From contig JAQUBQ010000001.1 of the NCBI GenBank assembly GCA_028686615.1, positions 142-64,141 on the forward strand: a stretch of DNA of 64,000 nt, read 5' to 3'. The position numbers and the translations under genes are program-made. The notes below the pieces were generated by a model. It saw only the letters and a list, made by a program, of their open reading frames with translations. It was not told the DNA's origin and did not search any database. This DNA comes from Clostridia bacterium (GTDB taxonomy: Bacteria > Bacillota > Clostridia > TANB77 > CAG-465). Below are positions 1,130-36,542 of this stretch, in pieces (positions within the stretch are counted from its first letter, which is position 1; each line of letters starts with the position of its first letter).

Positions 1130-1194
1130 ATAATATTACTCCTTTCTATGCCAAGTAATATTATATAATATCAAGCAAATAACTATTTGTATGA

Positions 1195-2400: not shown

Positions 2401-3907
2401 TTGCTCCTAATACCTTCTTTATTTCTTCATCAAGTTTTCTTGATTCTTCAAATTGTTTCTTTAATTCACTTGTAAGAGTTGTCATTCTTTCTTCAAAAGA
2501 TACTCCATCATCTTCTACTTCTTCTGTTCCTACATATCTACCTGGTGTAAGTAAGCTATTACTTTCTTGTACTTCTTTTTTAGTAGATGATTTACAAAAT
2601 CCTAGTATATCCTCATAGTTTTCATTTTTTCTCCAATTATGATAAGTATCTGCTATTTTTTTAATATCTTCCTCTGATAAATCTCTTACTTTTCTATCTA
2701 CCATATATCCTAAATTTCTTGCATCAATAAATAATATTTTATTTTTTGTTTCTTCTGTTTTTTTCTTCCTCATTATCCATAAGCAACATGGTATTCCAGT
2801 TGCATAGAATAATTGACTAGGCATAGCAACTATACATTCCACTACATCTTTTTCTATCATATTTTTTCTTATCGTTCCTTCATTTGATGTGTCACTAGAA
2901 AGGGAACCATTGGCAAGAACTGTTCCTGCAACTCCTGTTTGCGGGTTTAGATGGTGCAACATGTGTTGTAACCAAGCATAGTTTGCATTTCCTGTAGGTG
3001 GTACTCCGTATTTCCAACGAAGGTCATCTTTTAATCTGTCACCGCCCCAATCTGATATATTAAATGGTGGATTTGCTAATATATAATCTGCTTTAAGAGT
3101 TTTGTGCAAATCATTATGAAATGCATCAGCATTATGCATTCCTAGATTTCCATCTATTCTTCTTATAGCTAAATTCATTTTAGCAAGCTTCCAAGTTGTT
3201 GGGTTTAATTCTTGTCCATATATAGAGACATTTCTAATATTTCCTTGATGTTCCTTTATAAATTTAGTTGATTGTACAAACATTCCTCCAGAACCGCAGC
3301 ATGGATCATATACCCTACCATTATATGGTTCAATCATTTCGACTAATGTTCTAACTATGCACGCCGGAGTATAAAACTCCCCTCCACCTTTTCCTTCAGC
3401 TGAAGCAAATTTGCTTAAGAAGTATTCATATACCCTACCAAGCATGTCCATTTCTTTTGCTTTATCTGTTCCTATTTCTAAATTAGAAAACAGTGTCACT
3501 AGTTCCCCTAGTCTTGTCTTATCAAGTTCAGGTCTTGAATAGTTTTTATTAAGAACTCCTTTTAAAGATGTATTCTCTTTTTCAATAGTCTCCATTGCTA
3601 AGTCAATTATTTTTCCTATTTCTGCTGTATTCGCATGTTTCTTTATTTCGTTCCACCTTGCAATTTTAGGGACCCAAAAAATGTTATCCGATGAATATTC
3701 ATCTTTATCTTCTGGATCTGCTAAATCTTCATTTAAAAGATTATTATATTTTTCTTCAAATGCATCAGATACATACTTTAAAAATATAAGTCCTAAAGCT
3801 ACATGTTTGTATTCTGAAGAATCCATACTTCCTCTTAATTTATCTGCTGCAAGCCATAATTTATCTTCATAACCCAATGTTGTGTTATTATTTATTTTTG
3901 CCATCAT
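2384..3907 (-). CDS. hsdM: Type I restriction-modification DNA methyltransferase subunit HsdM (N6-adenine)
   Basis: 507 aa. Carries the NPPF motif ([13 protein letters not shown]) and an AdoMet-binding region ([12 protein letters not shown]). The N-terminal HsdM_N helix region reads [15 protein letters not shown]. Confidence 0.95.
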
Positions 3908-4233
3908 TATCCTCCTACAATTTTGTATATATTTCTACATATTTATTATACTTTTTTTCTTATTAAAAAGCAAACCATAAACTATAATCTTACTATTCTT
4001 TAACATATTTTGTTAATTAATATATAAAAATGTAAAATATCATCTAAAAAACATATTTATAATATTTAACTAATTTAATAAATAAAGCTGATAATTATTA
4101 AAAAACATAATTAATTACTGCATACTTCTTAAAACAAGCTGTTATAATCGATTTAATTGTTAAAATTCCTTGTCTTGGTGTTACGATACCAAAAGACAAA
4201 ACAAACCCCTCTATACCTTCCTCAGCCTTCACA

Positions 4234-4927
4234 TTGGACCAACAAAAACTCATAATACAATATGTGAATTTATCTAGAGCTACAAATGAAACATTACTTG
4301 CGTTATATACCGGAATGAGAGTTGGTGAAATTATTTCACTATATGTATCAGATATAGACTTTAAAAACAAAACAATAAATGTTAATAAAAACTGTTCCAA
4401 TTATACAGACTTTGATGCAGAGTTCAGAAGTAAAAACAAACAAGAAATATCCAAGACTAAGACTAATTCATCCACTAGGATAATACCATTTATATCTAAT
4501 AAAGTTGAAGAAGTATTAAGAGATCAATTAGAAGTGATTGAATATAATAAAAAAGTTTGGTAAATGTTACAAAAAGAATTCTCAATTACTATTTGCAAAT
4601 GAAAAAGGTAAACTTAAATCTACATCCACTGTTTCAACATGTTTCAATAGACTATGTGAAGTTATAAATGAAATTAAAAACAAAAATATTAAACCTACAA
4701 ATAAAAAATATATTAAAGTATTTAATAAACATAATTTCCATATGATTAGACATACATTTGCTACTAGATGTTTAGAAGCAGGAATGAATATAAAAGTTGT
4801 TTCTAAATTATTAGGTCACTCAAAAATACAATTAACCCTAGATATTTACTCTCATGTACTTGAACAATTTCAAGATGAGGAAATATCTAAGGTTACAGAT
4901 TATTTTAAGGATAAGGAGCTGTTTTAG
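4234..4927 (+). pseudogene. Tyrosine recombinase remnant. It is 5'-truncated and split into two overlapping ORFs by a frameshift.
   Basis: ORF 4234..4563 begins mid-domain at LLALYTGMRVGEIISL (the box I arginine region). ORF 4538..4927 carries HMIRHTFATRCLEAGMNIKVVSKLLGHSKIQLTLDIYSHV. No N-terminal core-binding domain is present. The first ORF opens with a TTG, not a credible start. Confidence 0.7.
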
Positions 4928-4949
4928 AACAGCTCCTTTGTGTATATAT

Positions 4950-7211
4950 TTATAATTTTTTTACATCATCATATATGTTTTTTAACTCTATTATATCCAT
5001 ATCTAAAATTGGTTCATACATAAAAGAATTTAAATGAATATTCTCTGGGGTTACAATATTAACTTTCTCTAGTACTTTAATCTTATCTATCGAACCAATT
5101 TGTATATAACCATTAAAAAGTTCCCTTGTTTGTTTATCACATAAACTTACATGTTGCATTAATAATGTATTATTTCCTGTAACAATACTATTATCTTTAC
5201 TCCAAGAAAATATTTTATTTACATCTTTATTAATTTCTTCAATCATAAACTTTTCTGCTGTCAATCTTGTTGCAATAGCTAAAATAATTTTATTTTCTAA
5301 ATATAAATTAGTAATATTTATGGTGTTAGCTTCAGCAAGTATTTTATCAAAAACTATATCAGTATCTACAACATTTATAAAATTGCTGTTACCAATGTAT
5401 TCATTATATATTATTTTTAGCATTCCAAAAGTCAGCTTATCTGTATGTTCTTTGACATGAAGTAGATTAGTCAAGAACATATAGTCCTCATCTATTAAAG
5501 TATAATTATTTACTCCTTTATCAACTCCATATTCTATTAAATTTCTAACAAAAGGGAGCAAGGCTATTATATATTTTATATTAAGATTTTTTTTCCAAAA
5601 TTGAAACGGTTGTTTTTGATATTTTTCTTTATCCAAACTTATTATGCCGTTAGTTATATTAGCATTTAATCTTTTATCTCTTGGAATAAAAATCCTTGTT
5701 GATATTGTTCTGTAGAAATCGAAATTATGTGATAATATTATTAAATAAAAGTTGTTGTATTTAGACATTTCATATAAATATTCTACTATAGCATATTTAT
5801 TCTTATAATCAAATGAATCAGCAATGTCATCTATAATAAATAATGTTCTCTGATTATCGATTTTTCTTTTTTCAACATCAAAAATTATATTAAGTAAATA
5901 TAAAGCCCTTTTTTCACCTTGACTTAGCACATCCTTGTTTTCTAATTCATCCCTGTCAAATTCAACCCAATTTTCAGGATCTAAATTTTCTTTGTTTCCG
6001 TCCTTACAAAAACTAAAAATAATTTTAGGTAAACTTTCTCCTATTATTGAACTTTTTAAGTTTACTATCTTCATTTTATATGGTACAGTAAATCTTTTTT
6101 CAAATATTTCTAATGCTCTTTTCCAAGGTGTTTCATCAAAATTTATTTCATCTATCTTTTTTTCCAAACTTTCATATTCTTTTTTTAATTCTTCAAATTT
6201 TTTTTCTTCTAACTTAATATATGAAAGCCACAATTGTAATCTTAATTCATTAAGATTATCTATCAAAAGCATCTCTACAATAGATGGGTTGTTCTCTATT
6301 ATATCTTTAAGTACTATTCCTTTTGCATCACTTAATGATTTTTCAATTTCCTTAAGTTCAGGTAAATCTTTTAATAAATCATCAATTTCTTTAAGTTTAT
6401 CAGAGATTTGTTTGATATTTGTTATCTCCATATCCCCAGCCAATATGATTTTATTATCTTTTACAAAATAATTATTTTTTTCTAAGTCTTTTGATATCTC
6501 TTTTAATTTTGGTAATGTAAATCTTCCTTTATCCAAAAAGTTAAAATCATTATACATTTCATCACTTTTTTTGATAAATTCTTTAATGTTTTTTTGAAAT
6601 GTTTCAGATTTAATCTTTTTTAAAACTGCTTCATCAAATATACTTGAATACTTAATGTCTTTTAGATTATCTGCTAACTTTGTTAAATCAAATTTTTTTA
6701 AGTTTAACAAAAAACTGCTATCATCACATTTAAAATCTTTAATTAGCGTGTTCTCCATTTCGTAAACTTTTTTACCTTGTGAAGTTTTTTGAACCTTCAG
6801 TCCTGATTGCTTTTCTAATAACTTAAGAAAATTGTTTCTTAAATTTAAAACACTGTTTATGGATTTTTTCAAGTCACTATTAATCAATAGAGAAGCTATA
6901 TTGTCAGATTCATATGAGTTTTCAAAAGATTTAATTACAAAAATATCATCACAAGATATATTACTATTATCAACTTCTACTTTTAAGATATTTGGAGTTT
7001 TATTAAATATTTCATCTTTAACTTCACTAGATTTACCATCTTGAATCATTTTAAAAGTTTTGGCAAAAGATGTCTTCATGAGACCATTTCTAGCATAAAC
7101 TGCATATACTTTTCCTGTACTAAAATCAAACTCTTTTTCTAATTTATTTATACCATAACAATTTTCAAATTCTAATTTTATATTTTTCATAACTTCCCCC
7201 TTAATATACAT
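4950..7211 (-). CDS. PrrC/RloC-like (AAA_13-type) ABC ATPase with a long coiled-coil insert and an uncharacterised roughly 250-aa C-terminal domain. Candidate anticodon-nuclease or abortive-infection partner of the Type I RM system.
   Basis: N-terminus IKLEFENCYGINKLEKEFDFSTGKVYAVYARNGLMKTSFAKTF parallels the PrrC/RloC N-terminus, but the P-loop is degenerate (NGLMKTS where NGSGKTS is expected). There is a K/E-rich coiled-coil of about 250 aa. The ABC signature is LSQGEKRALYLL and the Walker B is LFIIDDIADSFD. No HEPN Rx4-6H motif was seen in the C-terminal domain. Confidence 0.5.
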   Translation of the reverse strand: MYIKGEVMKNIKLEFENCYGINKLEKEFDFSTGKVYAVYARNGLMKTSFAKTFKMIQDGKSSEVKDEIFNKTPNILKVEVDNSNISCDDIFVIKSFENSYESDNIASLLINSDLKKSINSVLNLRNNFLKLLEKQSGLKVQKTSQGKKVYEMENTLIKDFKCDDSSFLLNLKKFDLTKLADNLKDIKYSSIFDEAVLKKIKSETFQKNIKEFIKKSDEMYNDFNFLDKGRFTLPKLKEISKDLEKNNYFVKDNKIILAGDMEITNIKQISDKLKEIDDLLKDLPELKEIEKSLSDAKGIVLKDIIENNPSIVEMLLIDNLNELRLQLWLSYIKLEEKKFEELKKEYESLEKKIDEINFDETPWKRALEIFEKRFTVPYKMKIVNLKSSIIGESLPKIIFSFCKDGNKENLDPENWVEFDRDELENKDVLSQGEKRALYLLNIIFDVEKRKIDNQRTLFIIDDIADSFDYKNKYAIVEYLYEMSKYNNFYLIILSHNFDFYRTISTRIFIPRDKRLNANITNGIISLDKEKYQKQPFQFWKKNLNIKYIIALLPFVRNLIEYGVDKGVNNYTLIDEDYMFLTNLLHVKEHTDKLTFGMLKIIYNEYIGNSNFINVVDTDIVFDKILAEANTINITNLYLENKIILAIATRLTAEKFMIEEINKDVNKIFSWSKDNSIVTGNNTLLMQHVSLCDKQTRELFNGYIQIGSIDKIKVLEKVNIVTPENIHLNSFMYEPILDMDIIELKNIYDDVKKL

Positions 7212-7445: not shown

Positions 7446-8849
7446 TTATTTTATATTTAATTTTATTCTATTGTATTCCCAGTTTTGAGAAACTTCAGCT
7501 TCTGATAATGCACTGCTGTATAAAGCAAAGTTATATATTGTTCCTGTGTATTTTAATCCTCTACCAAGTCTTAAATCCCCTAATGTTAAGTATTTATATT
7601 GTATTTTTTTACTTCCTGAGTTGAAGGTTTTTACTAAGCTTCCATTTAAATATACTTTTGTATCTTCCCCTCTTCTTCCTACAACTTGTATATTTAAGTA
7701 TTTGTTTTCATATTCTTGAATTGCAATACTTGCAAAGCCCTCTTCTTCGTATTCATAATCTATTTTTAAAAGAGCTCCTCCAGTTTTATAACTATATACA
7801 TGTAAATATCCATATACTATTCCAATCCAATTCAAGTAAACTGCTGATTCTTCAGATAATGCACATAATGTTGCTGGGTAATCTTCCCAACGTTCAGATA
7901 CACCTTTTTGGTTTACAGTTCCTTTAATTGTTAAGTTTATACCATATGTATCTCCTACTGGTTGCATTTCTTGATTCACAGTAATTCTTCCTACTTTTGA
8001 AGCGTTAGAAAGTTGTAATCCTCTATACATGTTATTCTCATAGGTTACATCATTATCCCCTTCCAAACTTTCCAATATTTCGAATTCTCCAAATTGAGTC
8101 AATGTTCTTGGCGAATCAAATGTAACTCCTGTCACTAAGTTATCAAGCACTAATTCAACTTCTTCATCTTGTTCTTGATATTGATTTACAAAATGAATAG
8201 GTACTTCTCCATCCATTATTCCTTGAATGCTCATAACCATACCTGAATTATAATTTACTATATATGGAGCATACTTAGCATTTATTATTCCAATGGATGA
8301 TAAATGATTTTCATCTAAGTAATGCCATCTACTTCCATAAGAAATTCCACGTATTTCTACATTATCAGGATGTGCAGTACCACCAATTTTATCTCCAACT
8401 AATGGTTTTTTTTGTTCTTTAATTTCTAAAACCTTATTTTCAATATTAAGGTTTTCTTTATTAAAGTCATACAGTTCTCTTTTAATAAGGATATATCCTA
8501 ACTTTTCAATATTTTCCTCTTTACTGGTAATATTATCATAGATATATATTAGTTTGTTGCTTAAATAAGCTACATTGTTAAATTCCTTTTCTTGTAGACT
8601 AGGAATTACTTTTTTTATTTCATCCTTTTCAATATATAGTGGATTATCCCTATCATCATTTAACAGCTTTTTAGCTTTGCTATACTCGAATTCTTCCTTA
8701 TATGTAGCAAACTCTGTCATTATTTTCGCTTTACTTGCTTTCCCTATAACTCCACTAGATTGTAAAGTCAAAATAATTGCTCCTGCTAGTATTATCATTA
8801 CTATTATTGTTATTACTAATACTACTAACGATACTCCTTTGTTTTTCAT
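7446..8849 (-). CDS. Type-IV-pilin-like N-terminal segment fused to a LamG/concanavalin-A-like lectin domain protein
   Basis: The likely start is the internal ATG at 8849 (MKNKGVSLVVLVITIIVMIILAGAIILTL), which has an AGAGGT RBS. The track ORF extends to 8879. The C-terminus reads GDLRLGRGLKYTGTIYNFALYSSALSEAEVSQNW, typical of a Laminin_G_3 domain end. Confidence 0.6.
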   Translation of the reverse strand: MKNKGVSLVVLVITIIVMIILAGAIILTLQSSGVIGKASKAKIMTEFATYKEEFEYSKAKKLLNDDRDNPLYIEKDEIKKVIPSLQEKEFNNVAYLSNKLIYIYDNITSKEENIEKLGYILIKRELYDFNKENLNIENKVLEIKEQKKPLVGDKIGGTAHPDNVEIRGISYGSRWHYLDENHLSSIGIINAKYAPYIVNYNSGMVMSIQGIMDGEVPIHFVNQYQEQDEEVELVLDNLVTGVTFDSPRTLTQFGEFEILESLEGDNDVTYENNMYRGLQLSNASKVGRITVNQEMQPVGDTYGINLTIKGTVNQKGVSERWEDYPATLCALSEESAVYLNWIGIVYGYLHVYSYKTGGALLKIDYEYEEEGFASIAIQEYENKYLNIQVVGRRGEDTKVYLNGSLVKTFNSGSKKIQYKYLTLGDLRLGRGLKYTGTIYNFALYSSALSEAEVSQNWEYNRIKLNIK

Positions 8850-10738: not shown

Positions 10739-11941
10739 TTACTTTATATAAGCTACAATTCGAAGTCCCTTATTATCACCCGCAACATAAGGAAGACTGT
10801 AAAGTGAGCGAGAACTTACAGGAGCGATTGAACCTCTAGAAGCATAAGCTCCGCCAAAACCGACACGTCCATTCCAACTGTAAGCCTCCATAGTCCATTC
10901 ATACACATTTCCTGCCAAATCATATATGTTTTTCTTTTGATAAGTGGCTTCTGAACCTGTTACTTTAAGTCCACCTCCACCAAGATAGTTCCCATACTCA
11001 GAACTATCTTTTACATTTATTCCACTAGCTTTATACCATCTCATTACTGCATCCCATTGCACTCCATAAATCAAATGACTTACTACTCCTCTTGTGTTTT
11101 GACTATTATCTGGATATAAGCTTCTTGCTACCTTTACTGCTCCATTTGCATTATCATCTCCTGCAAACCAATCATATGCTGTATCATCTTGTGTCCCACC
11201 CCATGGAATATAGTTCCACACAGCTATCCCTTGTCTTATTCGTGGTTTCTTTGTTCCATCTGCATCATTTATTGTTGTTTCTGTTGGTGCCTGCATCCCT
11301 TCAGCTATTCCTGCTTCATATCTTCCTATATAAAATCCTTTATACTTCTCTACACTTGCATACATCTTTTCTACTTCTCTATCTTTTCCTGTTTCAGGAG
11401 TTATTTCGTATAAATCATTTTTCGGAGCTTGATCATTCCTAAAATCATATCTTATAAATTCATTAATATTTTCTACTGGTACCCATACAAATTGATTTCC
11501 TTTCAAGCCTTCTGCTATATTATGTGATGTTCCTTGTCCCTCATCCTCGATATTATCCGATATTATTAAACCTTCTTCTACTGTTCCCCCTACATGGTAA
11601 AAGCCTTCTGGAATTATTGATTTAATATCATATACTGTCCCTTTTTCTGTTACGTTATATTCACTTTTTTTAAATCCCGCTTCACTTAATCTGTTTTCAA
11701 TATATTTTATTAAAGTTATTTCTTCTTTTTCAGCATCTGACATAAGTTCATACTCTGCTCTTGCAAGTACAGCTACTTGTTTGGCGTTTGCCTTATCGCT
11801 TTTCATTTTTGCTTCTTCTGCCCTAGCTATAATTCCACTACTATTTAATGATAATATTATTGCCCCTGCTAAGATTATCATTACTATTATTGTAATGACA
11901 AGTACTATTAATGATATTCCTTTTCTTTTATTTGTTTTCAT
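10739..11941 (-). CDS. Pilin-like N-terminal segment fused to an FGE-sulfatase (SUMF1) fold domain protein, paralog 1
   Basis: N-terminus MKTNKRKGISLIVLVITIIVMIILAGAIILSL with a GGAGGG RBS. FGE-fold motifs FYIGRYEAG, IYDLAGNVYEWT, RGS and a terminal GLRIVAYIK are present. The catalytic Cys pair is absent. Confidence 0.7.
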   Translation of the reverse strand: MKTNKRKGISLIVLVITIIVMIILAGAIILSLNSSGIIARAEEAKMKSDKANAKQVAVLARAEYELMSDAEKEEITLIKYIENRLSEAGFKKSEYNVTEKGTVYDIKSIIPEGFYHVGGTVEEGLIISDNIEDEGQGTSHNIAEGLKGNQFVWVPVENINEFIRYDFRNDQAPKNDLYEITPETGKDREVEKMYASVEKYKGFYIGRYEAGIAEGMQAPTETTINDADGTKKPRIRQGIAVWNYIPWGGTQDDTAYDWFAGDDNANGAVKVARSLYPDNSQNTRGVVSHLIYGVQWDAVMRWYKASGINVKDSSEYGNYLGGGGLKVTGSEATYQKKNIYDLAGNVYEWTMEAYSWNGRVGFGGAYASRGSIAPVSSRSLYSLPYVAGDNKGLRIVAYIK

Positions 11942-12171
11942 ATGTTTTTCCCTCCTATAATTATCTTTAATATTATTATATATTATTATTGTTTTAAAAA
12001 ACTTACTATTGCCTATTTACATCTATTTGTAATACAAATTAAATACTAATAATACATAATTGTAATATAGGCATTATGCTTTTTATATGTTTTTTTATAA
12101 CCTTGACTTGGTCTTTACTTTTTCAAGTTTTTTATGTATAATGAACTCTGCTTTAAAGGAGTGAATATTTT

Positions 12172-13266
12172 ATGAAATTAGGAATAGTAGGTCTGCCCAA
12201 TGTAGGAAAAAGCACATTATTTAATGCTATAACAAAAGCAGGTGCAGAAAGTGCTAATTACCCATTTTGCACTATTGAACCAAATGTTGGTATTGTAACA
12301 GTTCCAGATAGTAGAGTTGATAAGCTTTCTACAATGCATGAAACTCTTAAAACACTTTATGCAACAATTGAATTTGTTGATATTGCTGGACTTGTAAAAG
12401 GAGCTTCTAAAGGTGAGGGCCTTGGTAATAAGTTTTTGTCACACATTCGTGAAGTAGATGCAATAGTTCATGTTGTAAGATGTTTTGAAGATGAAAACAT
12501 AGTTCATGTAGATGGAACAATAAATCCTATTAGTGATATTGAAACAATAAATCTTGAACTTATATTTGCTGATATTGAAACAATCATTAAACGTATTGAA
12601 AGGGTATCGAAACAGACTAAGTCTGGTGATAAAAAAGCAGTTGCAGAATTAAATTTATTACAAAAAGTTAAACTACAATTAGAAAACGGGATACCTGCTA
12701 GAAGTATTGATTTAACAGCTGAAGAAAATGATATATTAAAAGATTCTTTTTTACTTACTTCTAAAAAAATGCTTTATGTTGCAAATGTGAATGAGGAACA
12801 ACTTACTGATTTAGATAATGATAAAAATGTCAAAATTGTAAAAGATCTTGCAAGCAAAGAAAAAACTGTTTGTATTCCATTGTGTGCAAAACTTGAAGAA
12901 GATCTTTCAGAGCTCGATAATGATGATAGATTATTACTTATGAACGATTACGGACTAGCTACTTCAGGTCTTGATGAACTTGCTAAACAAAGCTATGCTA
13001 TCTTAAACCTTATCTCATACCTTACTGCTGGCAAACAAGAAGTAAGAGCTTGGACTATAACAAAAGGAACAAAGGCACCAGGTGCAGCTGGAAAAATCCA
13101 CACTGATTTTGAAAGAGGATTTATAAAAGCAGAAGTTATTAACTATGACGAATTAATGAATGTAGGGTCTATGAATGCTGCAAAAGAAAAAGGATTAATA
13201 CGTTTAGAAGGAAAAGAATATGAAGTTAAAGATGGTGATATAATTTTATTTAAATTTAATGTCTAA
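12172..13266 (+). CDS. ychF: Ribosome-binding ATPase YchF (Obg family)
   Basis: [22 protein letters not shown]1 motif, 364 aa, with a C-terminal TGS domain. A rho-independent terminator follows. Confidence 0.95.
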
Positions 13267-13324
13267 GAAGGATAAACTCCTTCTTCTTATATTTAATCCA
13301 AACAACTTAATAAATTAATAAAAT

Positions 13325-13358
13325 AAATCCTCGTTATACACGAGGATTTATACTTTTT
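13325..13358 (+). terminator. Rho-independent terminator after ychF
   Basis: Stem AAATCCTCG, loop TTATACA, stem CGAGGATTT, then ATACTTTTT. Confidence 0.7.
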
Positions 13359-13405
13359 AATCTTTATTTTGTTAAGCTAAAGTCATATATTAATTATAAT
13401 TGTTA

Positions 13406-14620
13406 TTATTTTATATATGCTATAATTCTAAATCCAATAGTGCCATGTTCAAGTGAAGGAGAATATGCATGACGAGCAGATACTGCACCATCAATACTAC
13501 TGCTTACACAACCTCCTCCGCGAACAGCACGAGTATAAATATCCTTCGTCTCCATTGTCCATTCTTCTATATTTCCTGCCAAATCATATATGTTCTTCTT
13601 TTGATAAGTTTCTTCTGATCCTGTTACTTTTAATCCTGGTCCTCCAGCATAATTTCCCATTCCTGTGCTATCTTGCACATTTATTCCACATTCTTTATAC
13701 CATCTCATTATTGCATCCCAATTTACTCCATATATTAATGTAGATACTACTCCTGTTGTATTTGTGCTATCATCTGGATACATGCTTCTTGCTGCTTTTA
13801 CTGCCCCATTTGAGTTATCATTTCCTGGTCCTCCTTCATATGATGATGTATTACTAAATGTTCCTCCCCACGCAATATAGTTCCATACATATAGCCCCCT
13901 TTTTATTCTCGGAATGTTTTGTCCATTTGCCAAGGATGTTGTTGAAGCTGTTGGCTTTGTCATTCCATCTGCTATTCCTGCTTCATATCTTCCTACATAA
14001 AACCCATTATGCTTTTTTATACTTGCATACATTTTGTCTATTTCTTTTGTTCTACCTTTTACTGATCCAATTTCAAAGTATTTACCTGTTCCTCTTGATG
14101 TTGCTGTAAATTGTGCTATTATTAAATGAAAATCATATCTTACAAATTCACTAAATTTTTCTACTGGTACCCATACAAACTGATTTCCCTGTAATGTTGT
14201 TAAATGAGATGTTCCTTTCCCCTCATCATATATGTTATCTGATATTACTAACCCTTCATCAACTGTACCTCCAACATGGTAAAAACCTTTTGGAATTACA
14301 GGTATTGTATATACCTTTCCTGTTTCAGTTATTTCATATTTACCTTCTTTTATTCCAACTTCTTTTAATTTGTCCTCTGCATGTTTCTTAAATGTTTTAC
14401 CTTCCTTCTCTTCATCTGATAATAAATTATATTCTGCTCTTGCTAATGTTACGACTTGTTGTACATTTGCTTTATTAACATTTTTTACTGCTGTATTTGC
14501 ATTTTCTATAACATTGCTACTGCTTAATGATAATATTATTGTTCCTGCTAGTATTATCATTACTATTATTGTGATGACAAGTACTATTAAGCTTATTCCT
14601 TGTTTGCCTTTTGCTTCCAT
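13406..14620 (-). CDS. Pilin-like N-terminal segment fused to an FGE-sulfatase fold domain protein, paralog 2
   Basis: N-terminus MEAKGKQGISLIVLVITIIVMIILAGTIILSL. Motifs FYVGRYEAG, IYDLAGNIEEWT, RGGGC and a terminal GFRIIAYIK are present. It is similar along its whole length to paralogs 1 and 3. Confidence 0.7.
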   Translation of the reverse strand: MEAKGKQGISLIVLVITIIVMIILAGTIILSLSSSNVIENANTAVKNVNKANVQQVVTLARAEYNLLSDEEKEGKTFKKHAEDKLKEVGIKEGKYEITETGKVYTIPVIPKGFYHVGGTVDEGLVISDNIYDEGKGTSHLTTLQGNQFVWVPVEKFSEFVRYDFHLIIAQFTATSRGTGKYFEIGSVKGRTKEIDKMYASIKKHNGFYVGRYEAGIADGMTKPTASTTSLANGQNIPRIKRGLYVWNYIAWGGTFSNTSSYEGGPGNDNSNGAVKAARSMYPDDSTNTTGVVSTLIYGVNWDAIMRWYKECGINVQDSTGMGNYAGGPGLKVTGSEETYQKKNIYDLAGNIEEWTMETKDIYTRAVRGGGCVSSSIDGAVSARHAYSPSLEHGTIGFRIIAYIK

Positions 14621-14712
14621 TTTTTCATCCCCTTTTATTTATATATTATTTCATTTTTAAAGATTTTTCAAGCTTTTATAACATATAACCTTTGAAATTA
14701 TACATATGTTTA

Positions 14713-15645
14713 TTATATTATTTCCTTCATATCTTCTGGTACTTTAGCTTCTAAACTTAGTATATTTCCATTTGGTAGTTGTAATTTAATTTTGTTTGCA
14801 TGCAACATTTGTCTTCTTGCTGTTATACTTTCTTTTGTTATTTCTCCTCTTTCTATACACTCATTTATATACAAGTCATCTCCAACAATTGGATGTCCTA
14901 CACTTGAAAAATGTACTCTTATCTGATGAGTTCTTCCTGTATGAAGTATTACTTTTATAACTGTGTAATTATTTTCTTCATTATATTTAATTTTTTCATA
15001 CTCCGTTTTAGCACATTCTCCTTCTTCATTTTCTGTTGTTTCCCTTAATATAATACTATTTTCTTTTCTTTTGATTCTTTTTTCAATAATACCTTTTTCA
15101 GCTTTTAAATTACCATGAACAATTGCTATGTACTCTTTGTGTACCCTATTTTCTTTCATTTCTTTTGCTAAGTATTCTTGAATATATTTATGTTTTGCTA
15201 TAACTACTATTCCTGTTGTGTTTTTATCAAGTCTATTTGTTATATGAATGGGTCTTTTATCTTCTTTTTTTATATAATAACTCATTAATGCTTGGTAAAG
15301 TGTCTTTTTGGTATGGTTACTGCTTGGATGGCAAGGAATACCTGCTTCTTTATTTATACAAAGAAGCATATCATCTTCATATATGATTTCTATTTTAGAA
15401 TCCCATGGTTTAAATTTAGTATAAGCCTTTTCTACAGTCTCCTTAAAAGTCATATCTAAATATATATCTATTTTATCATTTTGTTTAACTCTATGTATAA
15501 GATAATAATCCTTATTATTTACTTTTATCGCCTTGCTATTAATTAATTCTTTTCTTAATATACTAGAAAAATTATATTTGTTCTTTATTACTTCTTTTAA
15601 TAATTTTCCATCTTCTTCTTTTTTAACAATATATTTTAATTTCAT
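14713..15645 (-). CDS. RluA-family 23S rRNA pseudouridine synthase
   Basis: HRLDKNTTGIVVIAKH catalytic aspartate motif, N-terminal S4-like region, 310 aa. Confidence 0.85.
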   Translation of the reverse strand: MKLKYIVKKEEDGKLLKEVIKNKYNFSSILRKELINSKAIKVNNKDYYLIHRVKQNDKIDIYLDMTFKETVEKAYTKFKPWDSKIEIIYEDDMLLCINKEAGIPCHPSSNHTKKTLYQALMSYYIKKEDKRPIHITNRLDKNTTGIVVIAKHKYIQEYLAKEMKENRVHKEYIAIVHGNLKAEKGIIEKRIKRKENSIILRETTENEEGECAKTEYEKIKYNEENNYTVIKVILHTGRTHQIRVHFSSVGHPIVGDDLYINECIERGEITKESITARRQMLHANKIKLQLPNGNILSLEAKVPEDMKEII

Positions 15646-15775
15646 TTACGCTGCCTTTCATTTTTTCATCATTATATACTATTTTTTCTTTTTATTCTAT
15701 TTTTAATAATAGTTTGTAATATTTTTTAAGATTTAAGCTATACATGTATTAAAGAAAAGTTACGGGAGGTAATAT

Positions 15776-17257
15776 ATGAATAGTTTAGATATATATAAAG
15801 ATATATCAAGTAGAACAAGCGGTGATATATATATTGGTGTGGTTGGACCTGTAAGAACAGGAAAATCTACATTTATAAAGAATTTTATGGAGATGTTTAT
15901 TATTCCAAATATAGACAGTCCATACAAGCAAGACAGGGCTAAAGATGAATTGCCCCAAAGTGCTGCTGGTAGAACCGTTATGACTACTGAACCCAAGTTT
16001 GTTCCAAATGAATCTGTAGAAATATCTTTAGATAACAATGTTAAGATGAGAACTCGATTAGTTGATTGTGTAGGTTATATGATAAATGACGCAATAGGTC
16101 ATATGGAAGGAGATCTTCCTAGAATGGTAAAAACTCCTTGGAGTGATGATGAAATTCCATTTATTCAAGCCGCAGAAACTGGTACTAGGAAAGTAATAAC
16201 AGATCATTCAACTATAGGTCTAGTTGTTACAACTGATGGAAGTATTACTGATATAGAACGTGGTAATTATGTAGAATCTGAAGAAAGAGTTGTAAGAGAA
16301 TTGAAATCTTTAAACAAACCTTTTGTTGTATTGCTCAACTCAAGAAATCCTGAAGATCCTGAAACTCTAGAACTTCGTAGTTCATTAGAAAAAAAATATA
16401 ATGCTCCTGTTATAACTTCTGATATACTTAACTTAAAAGAGAATGATATTGCAAATATCTTTAGCAGGGTCCTTGAAGAATTCCCAGTATCTGAAATAGG
16501 CTTTAAGCTTCCTGCATGGTTTAATGTTTTAGATATTGATCACCCTTTAAAACAAGACTTAATTTCAATTGTAAAAGATAACTTTTATGAGGATACTTCC
16601 ATAAGGGAAATAAACAACATTGTAGAAAACTTAAAAACAACTACAAACCTTTTTGATAGTATAACTATTGATAGTGCTAATATGCAAGATGGAAATGTTA
16701 AGATAATCATGAACATTAAAAATACATTTTTCTTTAAAGTATTAAGTGAAAAGTCTAAGATTCCTATTGAATCTGAAAAAGACATATTTAAAGTTATAGA
16801 TGATTATTCCTCTATAAAACAAAAGTATGATAAAATTGCAATGGCCTTAGAAGAAGTAAATATAAAAGGATATGGAATTGTAACACCTCAAATAGAAGAA
16901 CTTACTCTAGAAGAACCTGAGATTGTAAAGCAAGGCTCTAAATATGGTGTTAAACTTAAAGCTAGTGCTCCATCTATTCATATGATTAAAGCAGATATTG
17001 AAACGGAAGTTTCCCCTATTGTGGGCTCTGAAAAGCAGTCTGAAGATTTGGTAAAATATCTACTTTCTGAATTTGAAAACGATCCTAAAAAGATTTGGGA
17101 ATCTAACATTTTTGGGAAATCTCTTCATGAACTTGTAAATGAAGGATTACACAACAAGTTATACCGTATGCCTGACGAAGCTCAAATGAAAATACAAGAA
17201 ACATTACAAAGAATTATAAATGAAGGTTCTGGCGGGTTAATCTGCATAATATTATAA
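15776..17257 (+). CDS. spoIVA: Stage IV sporulation protein A (spore coat morphogenetic ATPase)
   Basis: MNSLDIYKDISSRTSGDIYIGVVGPVRTGKSTFIKNFME is near-identical to the SpoIVA N-terminal Walker A region. 493 aa. Confidence 0.95.
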   Translation: MNSLDIYKDISSRTSGDIYIGVVGPVRTGKSTFIKNFMEMFIIPNIDSPYKQDRAKDELPQSAAGRTVMTTEPKFVPNESVEISLDNNVKMRTRLVDCVGYMINDAIGHMEGDLPRMVKTPWSDDEIPFIQAAETGTRKVITDHSTIGLVVTTDGSITDIERGNYVESEERVVRELKSLNKPFVVLLNSRNPEDPETLELRSSLEKKYNAPVITSDILNLKENDIANIFSRVLEEFPVSEIGFKLPAWFNVLDIDHPLKQDLISIVKDNFYEDTSIREINNIVENLKTTTNLFDSITIDSANMQDGNVKIIMNIKNTFFFKVLSEKSKIPIESEKDIFKVIDDYSSIKQKYDKIAMALEEVNIKGYGIVTPQIEELTLEEPEIVKQGSKYGVKLKASAPSIHMIKADIETEVSPIVGSEKQSEDLVKYLLSEFENDPKKIWESNIFGKSLHELVNEGLHNKLYRMPDEAQMKIQETLQRIINEGSGGLICIIL

Positions 17258-17262
17258 TAATT

Positions 17263-17308
17263 AAAAAAGAAGAAATGTAGCATAAAATTACTACATTTCT
17301 TCTTTTTT
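17263..17308. terminator. Bidirectional rho-independent terminator between spoIVA (+) and FGE paralog 3 (-)
   Basis: Perfect 18-bp inverted repeat AAAAAAGAAGAAATGTAG / CTACATTTCTTCTTTTTT with a 10-nt loop. Confidence 0.8.
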
Positions 17309-17323
17309 AATTACTTTACCTTT

Positions 17324-18514
17324 TTATTTTATATATGCCACAATACGGAAACCTATTCCTTTATTTTCATTTGCATTAGCACCTCCATAGCGACGAATAC
17401 TTATTGGTATTTCAGAACCCCTGTAATAAAAATCTCCTCCTCGCCAAACGCGGTTACTATTATTGTATGCTTCCATTGTCAATTCCTGCACATTTCCCGC
17501 TAAATCATATATGTTTTTCTTTTGATAATTTGGCTTTAATCCTGTTTTTTCTAAATATCCTGTGAAATGGTTTCCATATGTTGAACTATCTTTCACATTT
17601 ATTCCACTATTTTTATACCATCTCATTATTGCATCCCATTGCACTCCATATATTAAATGACTAACTACTCCTTTTTTATTTTCAGCATTATCTGGATACA
17701 TACTTCTAGCTACTTTTACTGCTCCATTCTCATTATCATTTCCTAGATACCAATCATATAATGAAGATCCACTTCCTCCCCATCTAATATAATTCCATAC
17801 ATATATGTTTTGTTTGATTTGTGGACGCTTAGTTCCATCTGCTAATTCTACCGTTGAACTTGTTGGTTCTCCCATTCCTTCTGCTACTCCTGCTTCATAC
17901 CTTCCTACGTAAAATCCTTTATACTCGTTTACACTTGCATACATCTTTTCTACTTCCCTGTTTTTTCCAACTTCAGGTATTATTTCGTTATATATTGAAT
18001 CTATTGTTGTATCATTATTAAAATCATATCTTATAAATTCACTAAAATTTTCTACAGGTACCCATACAAATTGATTGCCTTGTAATACCGTTTCATGTAA
18101 TGTTCCTTGTCCTTCATCCTCTATATTATCCGATATTACTAAACCTTCTTCTACTGTTCCCCCTACATGGTAAAAGCCTTCTGGGATTATTGATTTAATA
18201 TTATATACTGTCCCTTTTTCTGTTACATTATATTCACTTTCTTTAAATCCTGCTTCCTTTAGCTTATCTTCAACATGTTTTCTTAAAGTTACTCCTTCTT
18301 TTTCAACATCTGACATGAGTTCATATTCTGCATTTGCTAACATTGTTACTTGTTTTGCATTTGATATGTTACTCTTTGTTGTTGCTTCATTTGTTTTGTC
18401 TACAATATTACTACTATTTAATGATAATATTATTGCTCCTGCTAGTATTATCATTACTATTATTGTAATGACTAGTACTATTAAAGATATCCCTTTTCTT
18501 TTATTTGTTATCAT
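17324..18514 (-). CDS. Pilin-like N-terminal segment fused to an FGE-sulfatase fold domain protein, paralog 3
   Basis: N-terminus MITNKRKGISLIVLVITIIVMIILAGAIILSL. Motifs FYVGRYEAG, IYDLAGNVQELT, RGGDFYYRGS and a terminal GFRIVAYIK are present. Confidence 0.7.
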   Translation of the reverse strand: MITNKRKGISLIVLVITIIVMIILAGAIILSLNSSNIVDKTNEATTKSNISNAKQVTMLANAEYELMSDVEKEGVTLRKHVEDKLKEAGFKESEYNVTEKGTVYNIKSIIPEGFYHVGGTVEEGLVISDNIEDEGQGTLHETVLQGNQFVWVPVENFSEFIRYDFNNDTTIDSIYNEIIPEVGKNREVEKMYASVNEYKGFYVGRYEAGVAEGMGEPTSSTVELADGTKRPQIKQNIYVWNYIRWGGSGSSLYDWYLGNDNENGAVKVARSMYPDNAENKKGVVSHLIYGVQWDAIMRWYKNSGINVKDSSTYGNHFTGYLEKTGLKPNYQKKNIYDLAGNVQELTMEAYNNSNRVWRGGDFYYRGSEIPISIRRYGGANANENKGIGFRIVAYIK

Positions 18515-23008: not shown

Positions 23009-25439
23009 TTATCCTCCAGAGCTAGGCATCTTCCACACATTTGTAAAATCCCATCCTGCATTTGTATATGTCTCATGTTGCTTTGCTTGTGCCTCTGTTA
23101 TTGTTGTTCCATCTTTACCATTTTGAGTTGTTTGAGCATTTATAAATGTTGTAGTTCCTGTAGCCGTTGGGCTTGAAAAATATTGCATAGTTCCTAAACC
23201 GTAATTATTATTTGGTGCTCCAAAATTATTTCCTGATATTCTTCCAAAATATGTGCTTGATGTCCCTGTTTGTCTTGTGATTTTTGTATTTAATCCAAAA
23301 CAGTAGCTAACATCTTGCTTATACATATGAATATATGAAATTATGCCTCCTGCTGACCACTTACTAAGAACTTCTCCTGCTGCGTAACACTTTGTAGGAG
23401 AACCATCACCTACTAGTCCACCTCCAGAATCTGTTGCATGAACATTTGCCTTTGAATAGCAATTTCTTAGTATTCCTGTAATATATCCGTCCTAGTCCTC
23501 CACATTCATAACCAGTAACTTTACCCTCTGTATAGCATTCTTCGATAACAGCCTTGTCGGTTTGGTAATTTGAATTTGCATATCCTACTAAAATTCCTGA
23601 TGTTCCGTAATCTATTGCATTAACTTCACCACTTACGCTTGTTCTTTGAATTTTAGTTTCATATGTGTTTCCAGCTAATCCCCCAACGGTACCCTTTGCA
23701 GTAACTTTAACGTTTTCCATTCTTATGTTTTTAAGTGTAGCTTCATATGTTAAACCAAAAAGGCCTATATTATATTCTTCTGGTCTATTAATATTCAAAT
23801 TAGTTATTTTATATCCTGCTCCATCATAAACCCCTGTAAATTTTTCTGTGCTGTCGCCAATTGGAAGCCATCCTGCTCCACTTGAATAGTTTGTTAAATC
23901 TATATTAGCCGTTTGTTTATAATTTTTATTTAGTCCATATCTTATATAATTTAATTCTTCTGCATTAGAAATTAAATATGGATCATTTATTGTTCCTTTT
24001 CCTTTTATATTAAAGCTTTCCATACCTTTAACTGGTAAGAATGTTGGATATGTTGATCCATTTGCTATATTCCATATATTTTCAAAATCCCAACCTATAG
24101 AAGAAAATGTTTCTTTTTGTTTACATGCTTCAAGTGATATATTTAATCCATCTTTTCCTGATAATGTTTTATTTTGGTTTGGAAAGTCTGTTGTCCCTTG
24201 AGAACTTCCTTGTTTAAACAACATTTCCTGATTTGCATATATTCCGCTTTTTTGTGATTGATATTCTTCACCCTCTTCACATAAAACTCTACTTACGTTA
24301 TTATCACTACCTTCACTTCTTGTAATACTATCATTTAATGCAAAAACATTTCTTATTTGTGTTCCCTCTCCAGTTATTCCTACTATTCCTGCAACATAAC
24401 TTTTCCCTTTTATACTAGATGTAGAATAGCTGTTTTTTAGTGAACCAAAGTCATATCCTGAAAAAGATCCTGCTATTCCCCCCACGTAATTTAGTCCATT
24501 TACGCTTCCAGCTGAATAACAATTATCAATAGCAACGTTGTATCCAACACCTATTATTCCTCCTACATTTTGGTTTCCCGTTATATTTCCTGTAGAAGAA
24601 CTATTTATTATAGATATTTCAGAATTACCAGCTATTGCTCCAACATAATTTTTTCCTATAATTTTAGCATTTTCTATTATTACATTTTTTATTTTTTTAT
24701 TTTTATTATAATCATCTTCATAACAATAACCAAATAACCCTTGATAATCTGAATTTGGCCTATTAATTGTTAAATTAATAATTTTATTCCTTCCTCCATC
24801 GTAATTTCCCTTAAATGGATTATTGTAATTGGTTCCTATAGGTTCCCAGCCTTCACCCGAAGAATAAGAACTTAAATCTATATCTGCCACTTGTATGTAT
24901 GACCCGTTTAAATCATTTCTTACATTATATAAATCTTCTGCCGTAACTATTGTGTAAGGATTTGATAAGGTTCCATCACCGCTTTCAGGAATACTATTAG
25001 GTTTGTCCTTTGTTAAAGATATAGGATTTTTCATATAGTAAACATTTCCTGTTTTATCACTATAAATATAATAATCATCTTCACCATTTATTCCTTTACC
25101 CTTTTCCACATTAGATTTTATTAGATTCATATCTAATTTATAAAACTTACCTATTAAACCTCCTACATCTGTTATTATTGTATCCCTTAACGTTGTATTA
25201 CTTAAAATGTCTTGAGTAGACACTTCTGATAAATATGGTTTTACATCTGTTCCCATATTTTCTGCGAAGTATAATTCTACTGCTTTTGATATGTTTCGAG
25301 AATCACTTCTCTCAACTGCTAATTTTGCTTTTCCTATTATATTACTACCTGATAGAGTTAGTATTATAGTAGTTGCTAAAACTATAATTACAATTATAGT
25401 TATAACTAAAACAATTAAACTTATTCCTTTGTTTTTCAT
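23009..25439 (-). pseudogene. Pilin-like N-terminal segment fused to a GLUG-motif repeat surface protein, interrupted by a +1 frameshift near 23480-23500
   Basis: N-terminus MKNKGISLIVLVITIIVIIVLATTIILTL. Many GG(L/I)(A/I/V)G repeats (VGGLIG, VGGIIG, VGGIAG, VGGLAG). Downstream of the frameshift, ORF 23009..23326 carries AGWDFTNVWKM, which parallels IGWDFENIWNI inside the main ORF. The shifted frame continues with NCYSKANVHATDSGGGLVGDG. Confidence 0.65.
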
Positions 25440-35180: not shown

Positions 35181-36542
35181 TTAGTAGCCTGTTAACTCCA
35201 GCAACGGATATATATGATGATAAGCAAATCCAAAATCCGAATTAAGTCCATTATCTTTATTAAATATATTTAATTTTTTTTCCACATCTTTTAACATACT
35301 TGTTATATATGGATATGTATACTCATAATCTTCTGCTATATATGTAGGAACTAAGTCTGGTCTATTTATTTTAGCCTCTGCTTCTGCTTCAAATACACTT
35401 AAATCAACACCCACTATATAATCCTTTTTATATTTTTCTAATCTTTCTAGTACTGATTCTGTAAGAGTTATAGTTGTTCCATCACCAAAGGTATACTTTC
35501 CTTTATTGTCTAAGCTTAAAAAAATGTTGTTTGCGTTTGTTGTATAATCCATAAATGTAATTTCATCTGCTAATTTTATTACTTCCTCTGCTATATTTTT
35601 TTCTACTCCATCATGTATAGCTGTATATCTATCCCACCAAACAGGAATATCATATCCAATAGTAATGTTTTTACCTTTAGAATAATTATATACTTCTGTT
35701 ATAAAGTCTAAATAACTAGTTCTACAAATGTTACTTTTTGCTGCATCACCTTGACCATCCACCCATTGTGAATTTGCATATGGTTCAACATCATAATGTA
35801 TTCCTCTTATCTTAGAATCGTAACTCGCATTTTCATTATACTCTGTAATTGCATCAATTATTGAATTAACCGAAGAAGGACGTATTTCTTCAAATACAAA
35901 TTGTGGATCCCCATATAATGCATATACGTACATATCTCTCTTATATGCCTCTTTGATAAAATTAGTATATCTATCGGTCTTATCTATATCTATAGGAATA
36001 TATATAATATTTACATTTAATTCCTTTAACTTATCTAAAACTCTTTTGGTTTCCAATGGATTATCTACATATTTAATTTCTTCTGGAATAGTAGAATTAC
36101 ACCAAAACCAAACAGCTATTACTTTTTTTATATCTTCTAATTCATTTTTTTCTATTTCAATAACAGTATTTAGTTTTTTAGAAAAAATATAACTTTTTTT
36201 AGGATCAGTTTTAATATTTAATTTATCTGTTTCTATTTTATAAAAAAAATCTAAAGGTGATAAATTAGTTCCAATTTTACTTTCAATATATGTTTTTAGA
36301 TTACCAGAAAAAGGACTAGCAAAAGGTGTAGACCTTATACAATTTTCTTCTGTGGTAATCTTGCTATAATTAAGAGCCTCATGTATTGTTGATTCATTAT
36401 TTAGTCTTACTGAATCTGATGTTTTATTAATTAAATCATTATTTGTAATTGATAATATTATCGCTGATGCTAAAATTATCATAATTATTATTGTAATAAG
36501 TAATACTATTAATGATATTCCCTTTATTTTATTTGTTTCCAT
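35181..36542 (-). CDS. Pilin-like N-terminal segment fused to a putative glycoside-hydrolase-like TIM-barrel domain protein
   Basis: N-terminus METNKIKGISLIVLLITIIIMIILASAIILSI. The C-terminal roughly 350 aa contain hydrolase-like segments (IAVWFWCN, IGYDIPVWWD). The family assignment is uncertain. It lies 36 nt downstream of the NRPS-coupled kinase. Confidence 0.45.
   Translation of the reverse strand: METNKIKGISLIVLLITIIIMIILASAIILSITNNDLINKTSDSVRLNNESTIHEALNYSKITTEENCIRSTPFASPFSGNLKTYIESKIGTNLSPLDFFYKIETDKLNIKTDPKKSYIFSKKLNTVIEIEKNELEDIKKVIAVWFWCNSTIPEEIKYVDNPLETKRVLDKLKELNVNIIYIPIDIDKTDRYTNFIKEAYKRDMYVYALYGDPQFVFEEIRPSSVNSIIDAITEYNENASYDSKIRGIHYDVEPYANSQWVDGQGDAAKSNICRTSYLDFITEVYNYSKGKNITIGYDIPVWWDRYTAIHDGVEKNIAEEVIKLADEITFMDYTTNANNIFLSLDNKGKYTFGDGTTITLTESVLERLEKYKKDYIVGVDLSVFEAEAEAKINRPDLVPTYIAEDYEYTYPYITSMLKDVEKKLNIFNKDNGLNSDFGFAYHHIYPLLELTGY

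Follow-up and report, generated by a model that had tools for sequence, protein, structure and literature searches.

Modular pilins consist of a functional module grafted onto a pilin, and in Streptococcus sanguinis two of them, PilB (with a vWA module) and PilC (with a ConA-like lectin), form a tip-located adhesive complex (PMC8179133, PMC9934059). A catalogue published in 2021 and built from IPR012902 contains pilins joined to PF13385, to IPR011493 (GLUG/M26; 6 proteins) and to IPR005532 (formylglycine-generating enzyme, FGE/SUMF; 8 proteins, Dataset S1) (PMC8179133). Degenerate class III signal peptides without Glu5, such as those of PilA and of the K subunit of HIJK, are missed by prediction tools and have been linked to the pilus tip (PMC9934059). 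The combination of a pilin with an FGE module is therefore already catalogued, as an uncharacterised architecture. Here we analyse three paralogous genes of a Clostridia bacterium (assembly GCA_028686615.1) contained in a 64 kb stretch of contig JAQUBQ010000001.1, which is called the window below. We consider it probable that they encode modular type IV pilin-like proteins lacking Glu5, which display a non-catalytic FGE/C-lectin binding head.

The three open reading frames (ORFs) lie on the minus strand, exactly where the original prediction had placed them (Table 1), each with a strong Shine-Dalgarno sequence, and the alignment confirms that they are collinear over their full length. They had been called near-identical, which they are not: amino acid identity is 57-70% overall (the alignment tool counts 59% between paralogs 1 and 2 and 70% between paralogs 1 and 3, and a separate alignment of all three pairs gave 57-68%), nucleotide identity is 70-76% and synonymous divergence (dS) is 0.56-0.70. 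Paralog 1 is 100% identical to PHR25_03025 of the metagenome-assembled genome (MAG) 'Clostridia bacterium' GCA_028704485.1, and other contigs of the PHR25_ MAG carry further FGE-like paralogs.

The main clue to the nature of these proteins is their N-terminus, which was overlooked in the earlier annotation. The shared leader is not restricted to the three genes: a six-frame motif scan found it in six ORFs of the window. It is a type IV pilin-like module common to other adhesin-type proteins. The paralogs open with M-x-x-x-K-R-K-G/ISLIVLVITIIVMIILAGAIILSL (MKTNKRKG/ISLIVLVITIIVMIILAGAIILSL in paralog 1; the slash follows the Gly at position -1), that is, with a basic leader ending in Gly and then about 25 hydrophobic residues. 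The whole module covers residues 1 to about 105 and comprises a basic leader of 4-8 residues, a hydrophobic alpha1-N of 25 residues, an amphipathic alpha1-C and a short helical cap. The AlphaFold2 model of paralog 1 has one long helix (residues 7-34 and 37-66) and then a small helical cap, with the FGE-like domain beginning at about residue 110. The predicted alpha1 helix of the paralogs is about 60 residues long, in the range of the extended N-terminal alpha1 (about 50 residues) that characterises pilins. Likewise, all three paralogs carry at their extreme N-terminus the hydrophilic leader ending in Gly/Ala and the stretch of about 21 mostly hydrophobic residues by which class III signals are recognised, and Gly is found at -1 in 137 of the 139 best leader matches. 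The N-terminus of the family profile matches the alpha1 of pilins in the PDB (geopilin E 0.005, MshA 0.12, PilE1 0.25); one family member is labelled 'type II secretion system protein' by NCBI, and some small homologues are labelled 'PilE' by the Joint Genome Institute (JGI).

At the DNA level, the leader-coding sequence forms a repeat family (D1) of six copies in the window, with 60-74% identity. The six encoded proteins are otherwise unrelated, and share a mean identity of 79% in a leader segment of 28 residues. Besides the three paralogs they include a LamG-type, a GLUG-type and a third protein (Table 1). The LamG and GLUG architectures mirror entries of the published catalogue of modular pilins.

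Relatives of the window's organism carry the same leader inside pilus loci. Clustering of neighbouring genes revealed a pilus-type cluster at three loci (L012, L101 and L109), in which a leader protein of 148-172 aa (G/ITLIALVITIIVLLILAG, with Ala5) lies between PilM/N- and PilO-like genes and a PF06750 protein (E 1.9e-31), itself followed by a ComGE-like minor pilin (E 1e-7) and then by a PilB-type ATPase. The small pilin of L012 weakly matches PF07963 (E 0.0018). In the GISLIV subtype, to which the window belongs, a full pilus locus is seen at L123 and especially at L124, L125 and L126. The order in the last three is PilM/N-like, PilO-like, a 117-aa ORF, a 118-aa pilin (MKKG/ISLIVLVITIIVMIIIAGAII), an A24_N protein, ORFs of 144 and 58 aa, PilB (T2SSE), PilT (T2SSE) and PilC (T2SSF), and L123, L101 and L012 are arranged in the same way. 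The 118-aa pilin shares 66% identity with the first 58 residues of paralog 3, 53% with the first 87 of paralog 1 and 45% with the first 106 of paralog 2. As it aligns with up to 106 N-terminal residues, the homology spans the whole pilin module and goes beyond the transmembrane stretch. Moreover, a leader protein of 683 aa with an FGE-like C-terminus is encoded two genes upstream of the L124 pilus locus, from which an Asp23 gene alone separates it. Over its last 330 residues it shares about 30% identity with the paralogs of the window, and at its N-terminus it matches the GspG pseudopilin model (E 2.5e-5).

An independent test was made with 80 metagenome loci retrieved only through the peptidase-like gene, 48 of which could be evaluated. 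In 45 of the 48, the peptidase-like gene is preceded, at a distance of 109-311 bp, by the end of a gene for a small leader pilin without Glu5 (Val5 in 18, Ala5 in 27); in lineages of higher GC, canonical G/FTLIELLVVIAIIG (GFTLIE) pilins occupy this position. The L124 organism shares only 42% (YqfD) and 59% (GlyRS) identity with that of the window, yet the leader is almost identical in both. Such constancy would suit a helix that packs in the core of a filament or is recognised by its machinery, while a generic membrane anchor would not be expected to stay so constant.

Two features of these loci depart from canonical systems. The small, presumably major, pilin itself has Val or Ala in place of Glu5 (L124:9482-9838, L101:4843-5286, L012:1011-1526 and 45 loci among L130-L207). 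To our knowledge, Glu5 is near-universal in bacterial major pilins, and a major pilin without it is thus unusual. In addition, the protein labelled 'prepilin peptidase' by NCBI in GISLIV loci has just the N-terminal domain of A24, PF06750 (L123:2158-2970, L124:10001-10801, and about 10001-10800 in L131, L143 and L147). Instead of the membrane aspartyl-protease domain, which is absent, it carries a Lys-rich linker, a prepilin-like segment in which position 5 is Glu or Asp (for example KKG/VYITEIVIAMIIF) and a beta-rich domain of about 100 aa. In the comparison of these proteins with those of other loci (L176, L190, L192 and L202), the GITLIA-type proteins keep the first catalytic Asp and show TGE or TYE as second motif, and the peptidases of canonical loci have both catalytic motifs, VYD..IPD and GFGDVKL.

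Several observations weigh against the paralogs being pilus subunits. Position 5 after the Gly is Val in the window type and Ala in the GITLIA subtype, in place of the Glu of canonical pilins; no window protein matches PF07963 or TIGR02532 at E<=0.1; and the pilin moiety of the model has no beta-sheet head. Cleavage of the leader is uncertain because the GISLIV-type 'prepilin peptidase' has no recognisable A24 catalytic domain. Neither pilus machinery (PilB, PilC, PilM) nor an A24_N protein or prepilin peptidase nor a small pilin was found in the window (Pfam scans and tblastn searches with proteins of L124) or in some 121 kb of sequence from the same MAG, three other contigs included. A search with the small GISLIV pilin returned no PHR25_ protein. 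The dagK-glyRS interval, where L124 has its pilus locus, holds DUF3048, DUF3298, FtsH, nonribosomal peptide synthetase (NRPS) and other unrelated genes in the window. Furthermore, at least 11 leader genes per about 121 kb is far above the number of minor pilins in any characterised pilus. A search of the peptidase family gave three proteins named prepilin peptidase by NCBI that have no locus tag: P0277 comes from another assembly, and P0340 and P0355 were not traced. Since no pilus genes were found in the sequence searched from this MAG, we infer pilus incorporation of the paralogs from the relatives.

The missing Glu5, the pilus genes not found in the sequence examined from this MAG, the loci without a recognisable peptidase domain and the very many copies per genome would all agree with another explanation, in which the pilin-derived helix is an uncleaved signal-anchor. 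The paralogs would then be membrane-anchored proteins of the wall zone, and not pilus subunits, with the FGE-like domain held at the outer face of the membrane to bind an envelope or substrate component. The hydrophobic stretch, with about 25 residues, is well able to anchor a protein in the membrane, and comparable cases exist in PorK/GldK, an FGE-fold lipoprotein scaffold, and in the non-catalytic SUMF2; PorK is among both the sequence and the fold matches reported below. This anchor explanation, which we regard as the main rival and as rather unlikely, leaves three facts unexplained: the near-identity of the helix across organisms whose housekeeping proteins are 42-59% identical, the homology that extends through alpha1-C to the small pilin of pilus loci, and the exclusive placement of the same leader on the small pilin beside the peptidase-like gene in 45 of 48 loci. 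The modules with which the leader is combined elsewhere (leucine-rich repeats (LRR), lectins, GLUG, dockerin) also speak for exposed adhesins. We thus favour modular pilin-like proteins over wall-zone anchors.

With regard to the C-terminal part, the FGE assignment requires a family profile and a structure model, since the single proteins stay below the threshold of PF03781 (E 0.004-0.011, 15.8-17.3 bits, with a cut-off of 23.3). These matches are limited to the C-terminal 17-60 residues or so of the paralogs (E 0.0042 for paralog 2), and many full-length homologues have a precomputed PF03781 match. A profile of 83 family members, compared with PDB sequences, matched SUMF2/pFGE with E 2.7e-7, PorK with about 1e-3 and TvpA of Treponema denticola with 1e-3. 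The AlphaFold2 model built on the family alignment is confident (pLDDT 92.6, pTM 0.83). When it was used as a Foldseek query against the PDB, TvpA was the top match (E 8e-6), and the matches listed also included the FGEs of Streptomyces coelicolor and human, CarF, TaqVP, EgtB, OvoA, PvdO, PorK and Mtd. The modelled C-terminal 290 residues or so are thus supported as an FGE-type C-lectin fold, as the original prediction had proposed. The FGE motifs quoted there were nearly right and differ in three details: the first one is FY[IV]GRYEAG, paralog 3 reads IYDLAGNVQELT, i.e. ...NVQELT with Leu instead of Trp, and the C-terminus of paralog 1 is GLRIVAYIK.

Catalytic FGE/SUMF1 binds Cu(I) and substrate through a Cys pair (C336/C341 in the human enzyme) located in a C-terminal loop. 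This pair is missing from the paralogs, as had been noted. Paralogs 1 and 3 have no Cys at all, and paralog 2, to which a single Cys had been attributed, has two (C311 and C371), which lie 60 residues apart and are not the FGE pair. No Cys is present in the segment aligned with the FGE loop in 51 of the 83 family members. Because the copper-binding pair is lost, the head is probably a binding-type FGE fold and not an enzyme, and a lectin-like role, already suggested for these proteins, is the most reasonable one given the fold. An active enzyme of FGE/EgtB/PvdO type that modifies an extracytoplasmic substrate might be suspected from the weak PF03781 similarity and from the NCBI label of one homologue, 'SUMF1/EgtB/PvdO family nonheme iron enzyme'. 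We find this extremely improbable: the Cys needed for FGE copper chemistry are absent from the paralogs and loop Cys from most of the family, the closest sequence match of the family profile is the non-catalytic paralogue SUMF2, and in the model a pilin helix precedes the FGE-like fold and no DinB-like iron domain is predicted, as there is in EgtB and OvoA.

Paralog divergence is uneven. The last 46 residues are only 35-39% identical among the three proteins, with a nonsynonymous divergence (dN) of about 0.7 vs 0.2-0.28 in the core, and in the orthologue pair of paralog 3 they reach a dN/dS of 0.82. This segment aligns with the FGE Cys loop (in the SUMF2 alignment) and with the variable region of C-lectin proteins that belong to diversity-generating retroelements (DGRs). 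As TvpA and TaqVP are DGR targets, we tested whether the C-lectin C-terminus could be a variable region rewritten by a reverse transcriptase from a template repeat. The best structural matches being the DGR variable proteins TvpA and TaqVP, with Mtd also matched, and the most variable segment being the C-terminal 46 residues or so, where DGR variable regions lie, the idea has some appeal. Nevertheless, a repeat search over the 64 kb of the window revealed no further copy of the C-terminal region that could be a template, and no reverse transcriptase is present among the identified ORFs of the window. The C-terminal DNA differs at all four bases, with an indel, and not specifically at adenines, and its dS is as high as elsewhere in the genes, as in ordinary divergence. 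DGR diversification was consequently rejected for this window, and we consider it very improbable for the paralogs.

The synteny comparison that the original prediction had suggested for dating the insertions shows them to be old. In L127 (GCA_964465775.1) the order SH3 - DAO oxidoreductase - small ORF - PGA_cap - FGE-like pilin is that of the window around paralog 3, and in L001 (a JGI contig) the order paralog-1 orthologue - uridine kinase - LamG-pilin is that around paralog 1; the LamG-pilin of L001 is 84% identical to that of the window. Flanking proteins are mostly 86-94% identical between the window and these two contigs (79% for the SH3-domain protein), whereas the FGE-like positional orthologues are 63% and 73% identical. 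Their dS (0.52 and 0.47) equals that of their neighbours (0.43-0.65), so they are true orthologues of the same age as the neighbours and show no trace of recent conversion or replacement. In dN they exceed the neighbours by a factor of 4-6 (dN/dS 0.37-0.44 vs 0.07-0.11). The copies had been taken for recent duplicates, possibly spread by repeated recombination through the shared leader. The conserved positions of paralogs 1 and 3 in related MAGs and a dS that matches flanking housekeeping genes speak against both ideas. The duplicates are old and positionally stable, and as they are not recent, their dispersal needs no special explanation. From these rates, selection on the paralogs appears to be relaxed or diversifying, with its focus on the loops that presumably bind the ligand. 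P0002, the outside homologue nearest to paralog 1 (73% identity; contig L001, JGI Ga0265293_10014132), is assigned by NCBI to a 'Candidatus Kapaibacterium sp.' MAG. The contig is syntenic with the window (uridine kinase 93.5% identical), and that bin probably contains a mis-binned Clostridia contig.

In uncultured Clostridia of guts and digesters, FGE-like leader proteins make up a very large family, most of it unannotated. More than 5,500 matches were obtained for the full-length FGE-like family, nearly all of them unnamed. A profile of the N-terminal 70 residues alone, searched against cluster representatives at 50% identity, matched 24,116 of them at E<=1e-3 and 2,176 at E<=1e-10, always at the extreme N-terminus of proteins of 60-756 aa. 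When 103 leader proteins were scanned, about three quarters had no Pfam domain, and the rest carried BspA-type LRR (12), LRR_8, GLUG, RCC1 propellers, DUF285, dockerin, the PA-IIL fucose lectin or FGE-like domains. These partners are binding or adhesion modules of the kind typical of exposed adhesins. A degenerate-DNA scan of species-representative genomes gave at least 118 loci with the leader; the 84 that were listed all belong to uncultured Clostridia, Clostridium or Bacillota, and are nearly all MAGs, most of which come from gut samples of animals or humans. The window's MAG has 11 leader-bearing ORFs in about 121 kb, none shorter than 380 aa. Neither a search of the literature for the leader string 'ITLIALV' nor one for an expanded Glu5-less leader family found a paper describing them.

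Dispersal among housekeeping genes is the norm for the leader family. In the window, the paralogs are separated, as the original prediction had it, by ychF (12172-13266) and by genes for an RluA-family pseudouridine synthase (14713-15645) and spoIVA (15776-17257). Elsewhere, family members adjoin PNPase/CTP synthase, PcrA/MraZ, ArgRS/spoIIIA, adk and ribosomal protein genes, or ProRS/SodC, and among the ORFs clustered from 118 loci no conserved neighbour of leader genes was found (the maximum was 8 loci, for an ABC/FtsX protein). One FGE-like member (L128:1817-3061, GCA_964465775.1) is inserted at the border of the ribosomal protein cluster, with adk-map-infA-rpmJ-rpsM-rpsK-rpsD-rpoA-rplQ directly downstream of it. 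As for transcription in the window, paralogs 2 and 3 terminate at hairpins that they have in common with the convergent ychF and spoIVA, respectively (Table 1). A promoter scan was not above chance (51 found vs 49 expected).

Table 1. Leader genes of the window and the sequence features associated with them
Feature	Position	Strand	Description
Paralog 1	10739..11941	-	400 aa; pilin-like module ~1-105, FGE-type C-lectin module ~110-400; no Cys
Paralog 2	13406..14620	-	404 aa; architecture as paralog 1; Cys311 and Cys371; 7-residue insertion near residue 168
Paralog 3	17324..18514	-	396 aa; architecture as paralog 1; no Cys; 43 bp downstream of PGA_cap gene
Leader and hydrophobic alpha1-N coding segment, paralog 1	11837..11941	-	class III-signal-like, Val5
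Equivalent leader segments	14516-14620, 18410-18514, 8745-8849, 25335-25439, 36438-36542		found by six-frame motif scan
Hypervariable C-terminal segment (~46 codons), paralog 1	10739..10879	-	equivalents at 13406-13546 and 17324-17464
Fourth leader gene	7446..8849	-	~467 aa from MKNKG/VSLVVLVITIIV; C-terminal LamG/concanavalin-like module, PF13385 E 3.7e-5
Fifth leader gene	23406..25439	-	677 aa; GLUG-motif repeats, PF07581 E 1.4e-9
Sixth leader gene	35181..36542	-	453 aa; C-terminal domain without Pfam match
Terminator-like hairpin, bidirectional	13323..13351	.	between convergent ychF and paralog 2
Terminator-like hairpin, 20 bp stem	17262..17309	.	between convergent spoIVA and paralog 3

Other regions of the window deserve mention. 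ORFs of 401 and 507 aa at 1195-3907, considered for their size as PilC and PilB, were rejected because they are HsdS and HsdM of a type I restriction-modification system. They are part of a likely mobile or defence island (128-7211) with a tyrosine recombinase (128-1129), HsdS (1195-2400), HsdM (2384-3907), an apparent second, fragmented recombinase (4234-4927) and an SMC/AAA-like protein of 753 aa (4950-7211). An integrase and HsdM are likewise encoded close to the LamG-pilin of L001, with different genes between. The region where the distant relative L124 has its pilus locus is occupied in the window by the segment 36579-45494, which encodes a two-module NRPS of 2,394 aa (38310-45494) ending in an apparent reductase-type domain and, directly downstream, a membrane histidine kinase (36579-38309) followed by the 453-aa leader gene. 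An agr-like quorum-sensing set is also present, with a LytTR response regulator (54774-55448), a GHKL histidine kinase (55476-56831) and AgrB (57118-57732).

If the paralogs are modular pilin-like proteins, they could work as follows. The hydrophobic helix would insert the protein into the membrane, where the type IV pilus machinery of the lineage would recognise it, with the leader possibly processed, and would build the protein into pili made of the small pilin with the same leader, or place it at their tip. The lectin-like head would in this manner be displayed outside the cell wall. Many genes with different heads (FGE-like, LamG and GLUG here; LRR, RCC1 and PA-IIL lectin elsewhere) would then provide a repertoire of alternative adhesins or ligand binders. 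In the FGE-like head, the C-terminal loops, which correspond to the FGE active-site loop and to the DGR variable region and are the fastest-evolving part, would set the specificity. It is tempting to go further and to speculate, although we think it improbable in this complete form, that a non-canonical type IV filament system exists across uncultured low-GC Clostridia. It would comprise a small, presumably major, pilin and dozens of dispersed modular pilins per genome, all without Glu5, and a 'prepilin peptidase' whose aspartyl-protease domain is lost or radically altered (in the GISLIV type, fused to a Glu5/Asp5 minor pilin), and the almost invariant helix would be a sorting tag by which scattered adhesin heads, those of the three paralogs among them, are loaded onto the filament, resulting in a combinatorial surface display based on pili.

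Should the leader proteins be genuine pilus subunits, uncultured gut and digester Clostridia would encode very large repertoires of interchangeable pilus adhesins. These are missed by current annotation, in which nearly all leader proteins are 'hypothetical', because the defining Glu5 signature is absent. The concept of the modular pilin, which now covers one or two subunits encoded in an operon, would be widened to dozens of genes scattered over each genome, and the FGE/C-lectin fold, nature's favoured hypervariable binding scaffold, would join the modules displayed on pili. The universal need for Glu5 and for a canonical prepilin peptidase in the assembly of bacterial type IV filaments would also be called into question. 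The leader profile provides a simple annotation handle for candidate adhesins in gut metagenomes.

Regarding known systems, the head of the paralogs has the fold of SUMF2 (pFGE, 1y4j), TvpA (2y3c), TaqVP (5vf4) and PorK/GldK, with the YDLxGNVxEW and GFR motifs kept. All of these have lost the FGE Cys pair and have a binding or scaffolding role instead of catalysis, and in TvpA and TaqVP, as in the paralogs, variability is concentrated in C-terminal loops. None of them, however, starts with a pilin module; TvpA and TaqVP owe their diversification to a DGR, of which none was found in the window, and PorK is a lipoprotein of the type IX secretion system of Bacteroidota. Regarding the N-terminus, GspK, the K subunit of HIJK, and PilA of S. 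sanguinis also have a pilin-like start without Glu5 and a degenerate signal; GspK carries a bulky extra domain, and its lack of Glu5 has been linked to the tip position (PMC9934059). In those systems only one subunit is Glu5-less and the major pilin keeps Glu5, whereas here the small, presumably major, pilin is Glu5-less as well.

As a whole, the paralogs resemble PilB (pilin and vWA) and PilC (pilin, Ig and ConA-like lectin) of S. sanguinis in having a short pilin moiety, a short linker and a bulky ligand-binding module. A version of LamG/ConA type is encoded in the same window by the fourth leader gene, and the role proposed for all of them is the display of adhesive modules on type IV pili. 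PilB and PilC have a canonical class III signal with Glu5 and are encoded inside the pil operon in one copy each. The paralogs, in contrast, have Val5, are singly dispersed among housekeeping genes, occur in many copies per genome and carry an FGE-type C-lectin module. Finally, proteins that combine IPR012902, the prepilin N-methylation site, with IPR005532 have the same two-module architecture as the paralogs. They were found through a signature that requires Glu5, which the family of the window escapes, and this family is far larger, with more than 5,500 matches.

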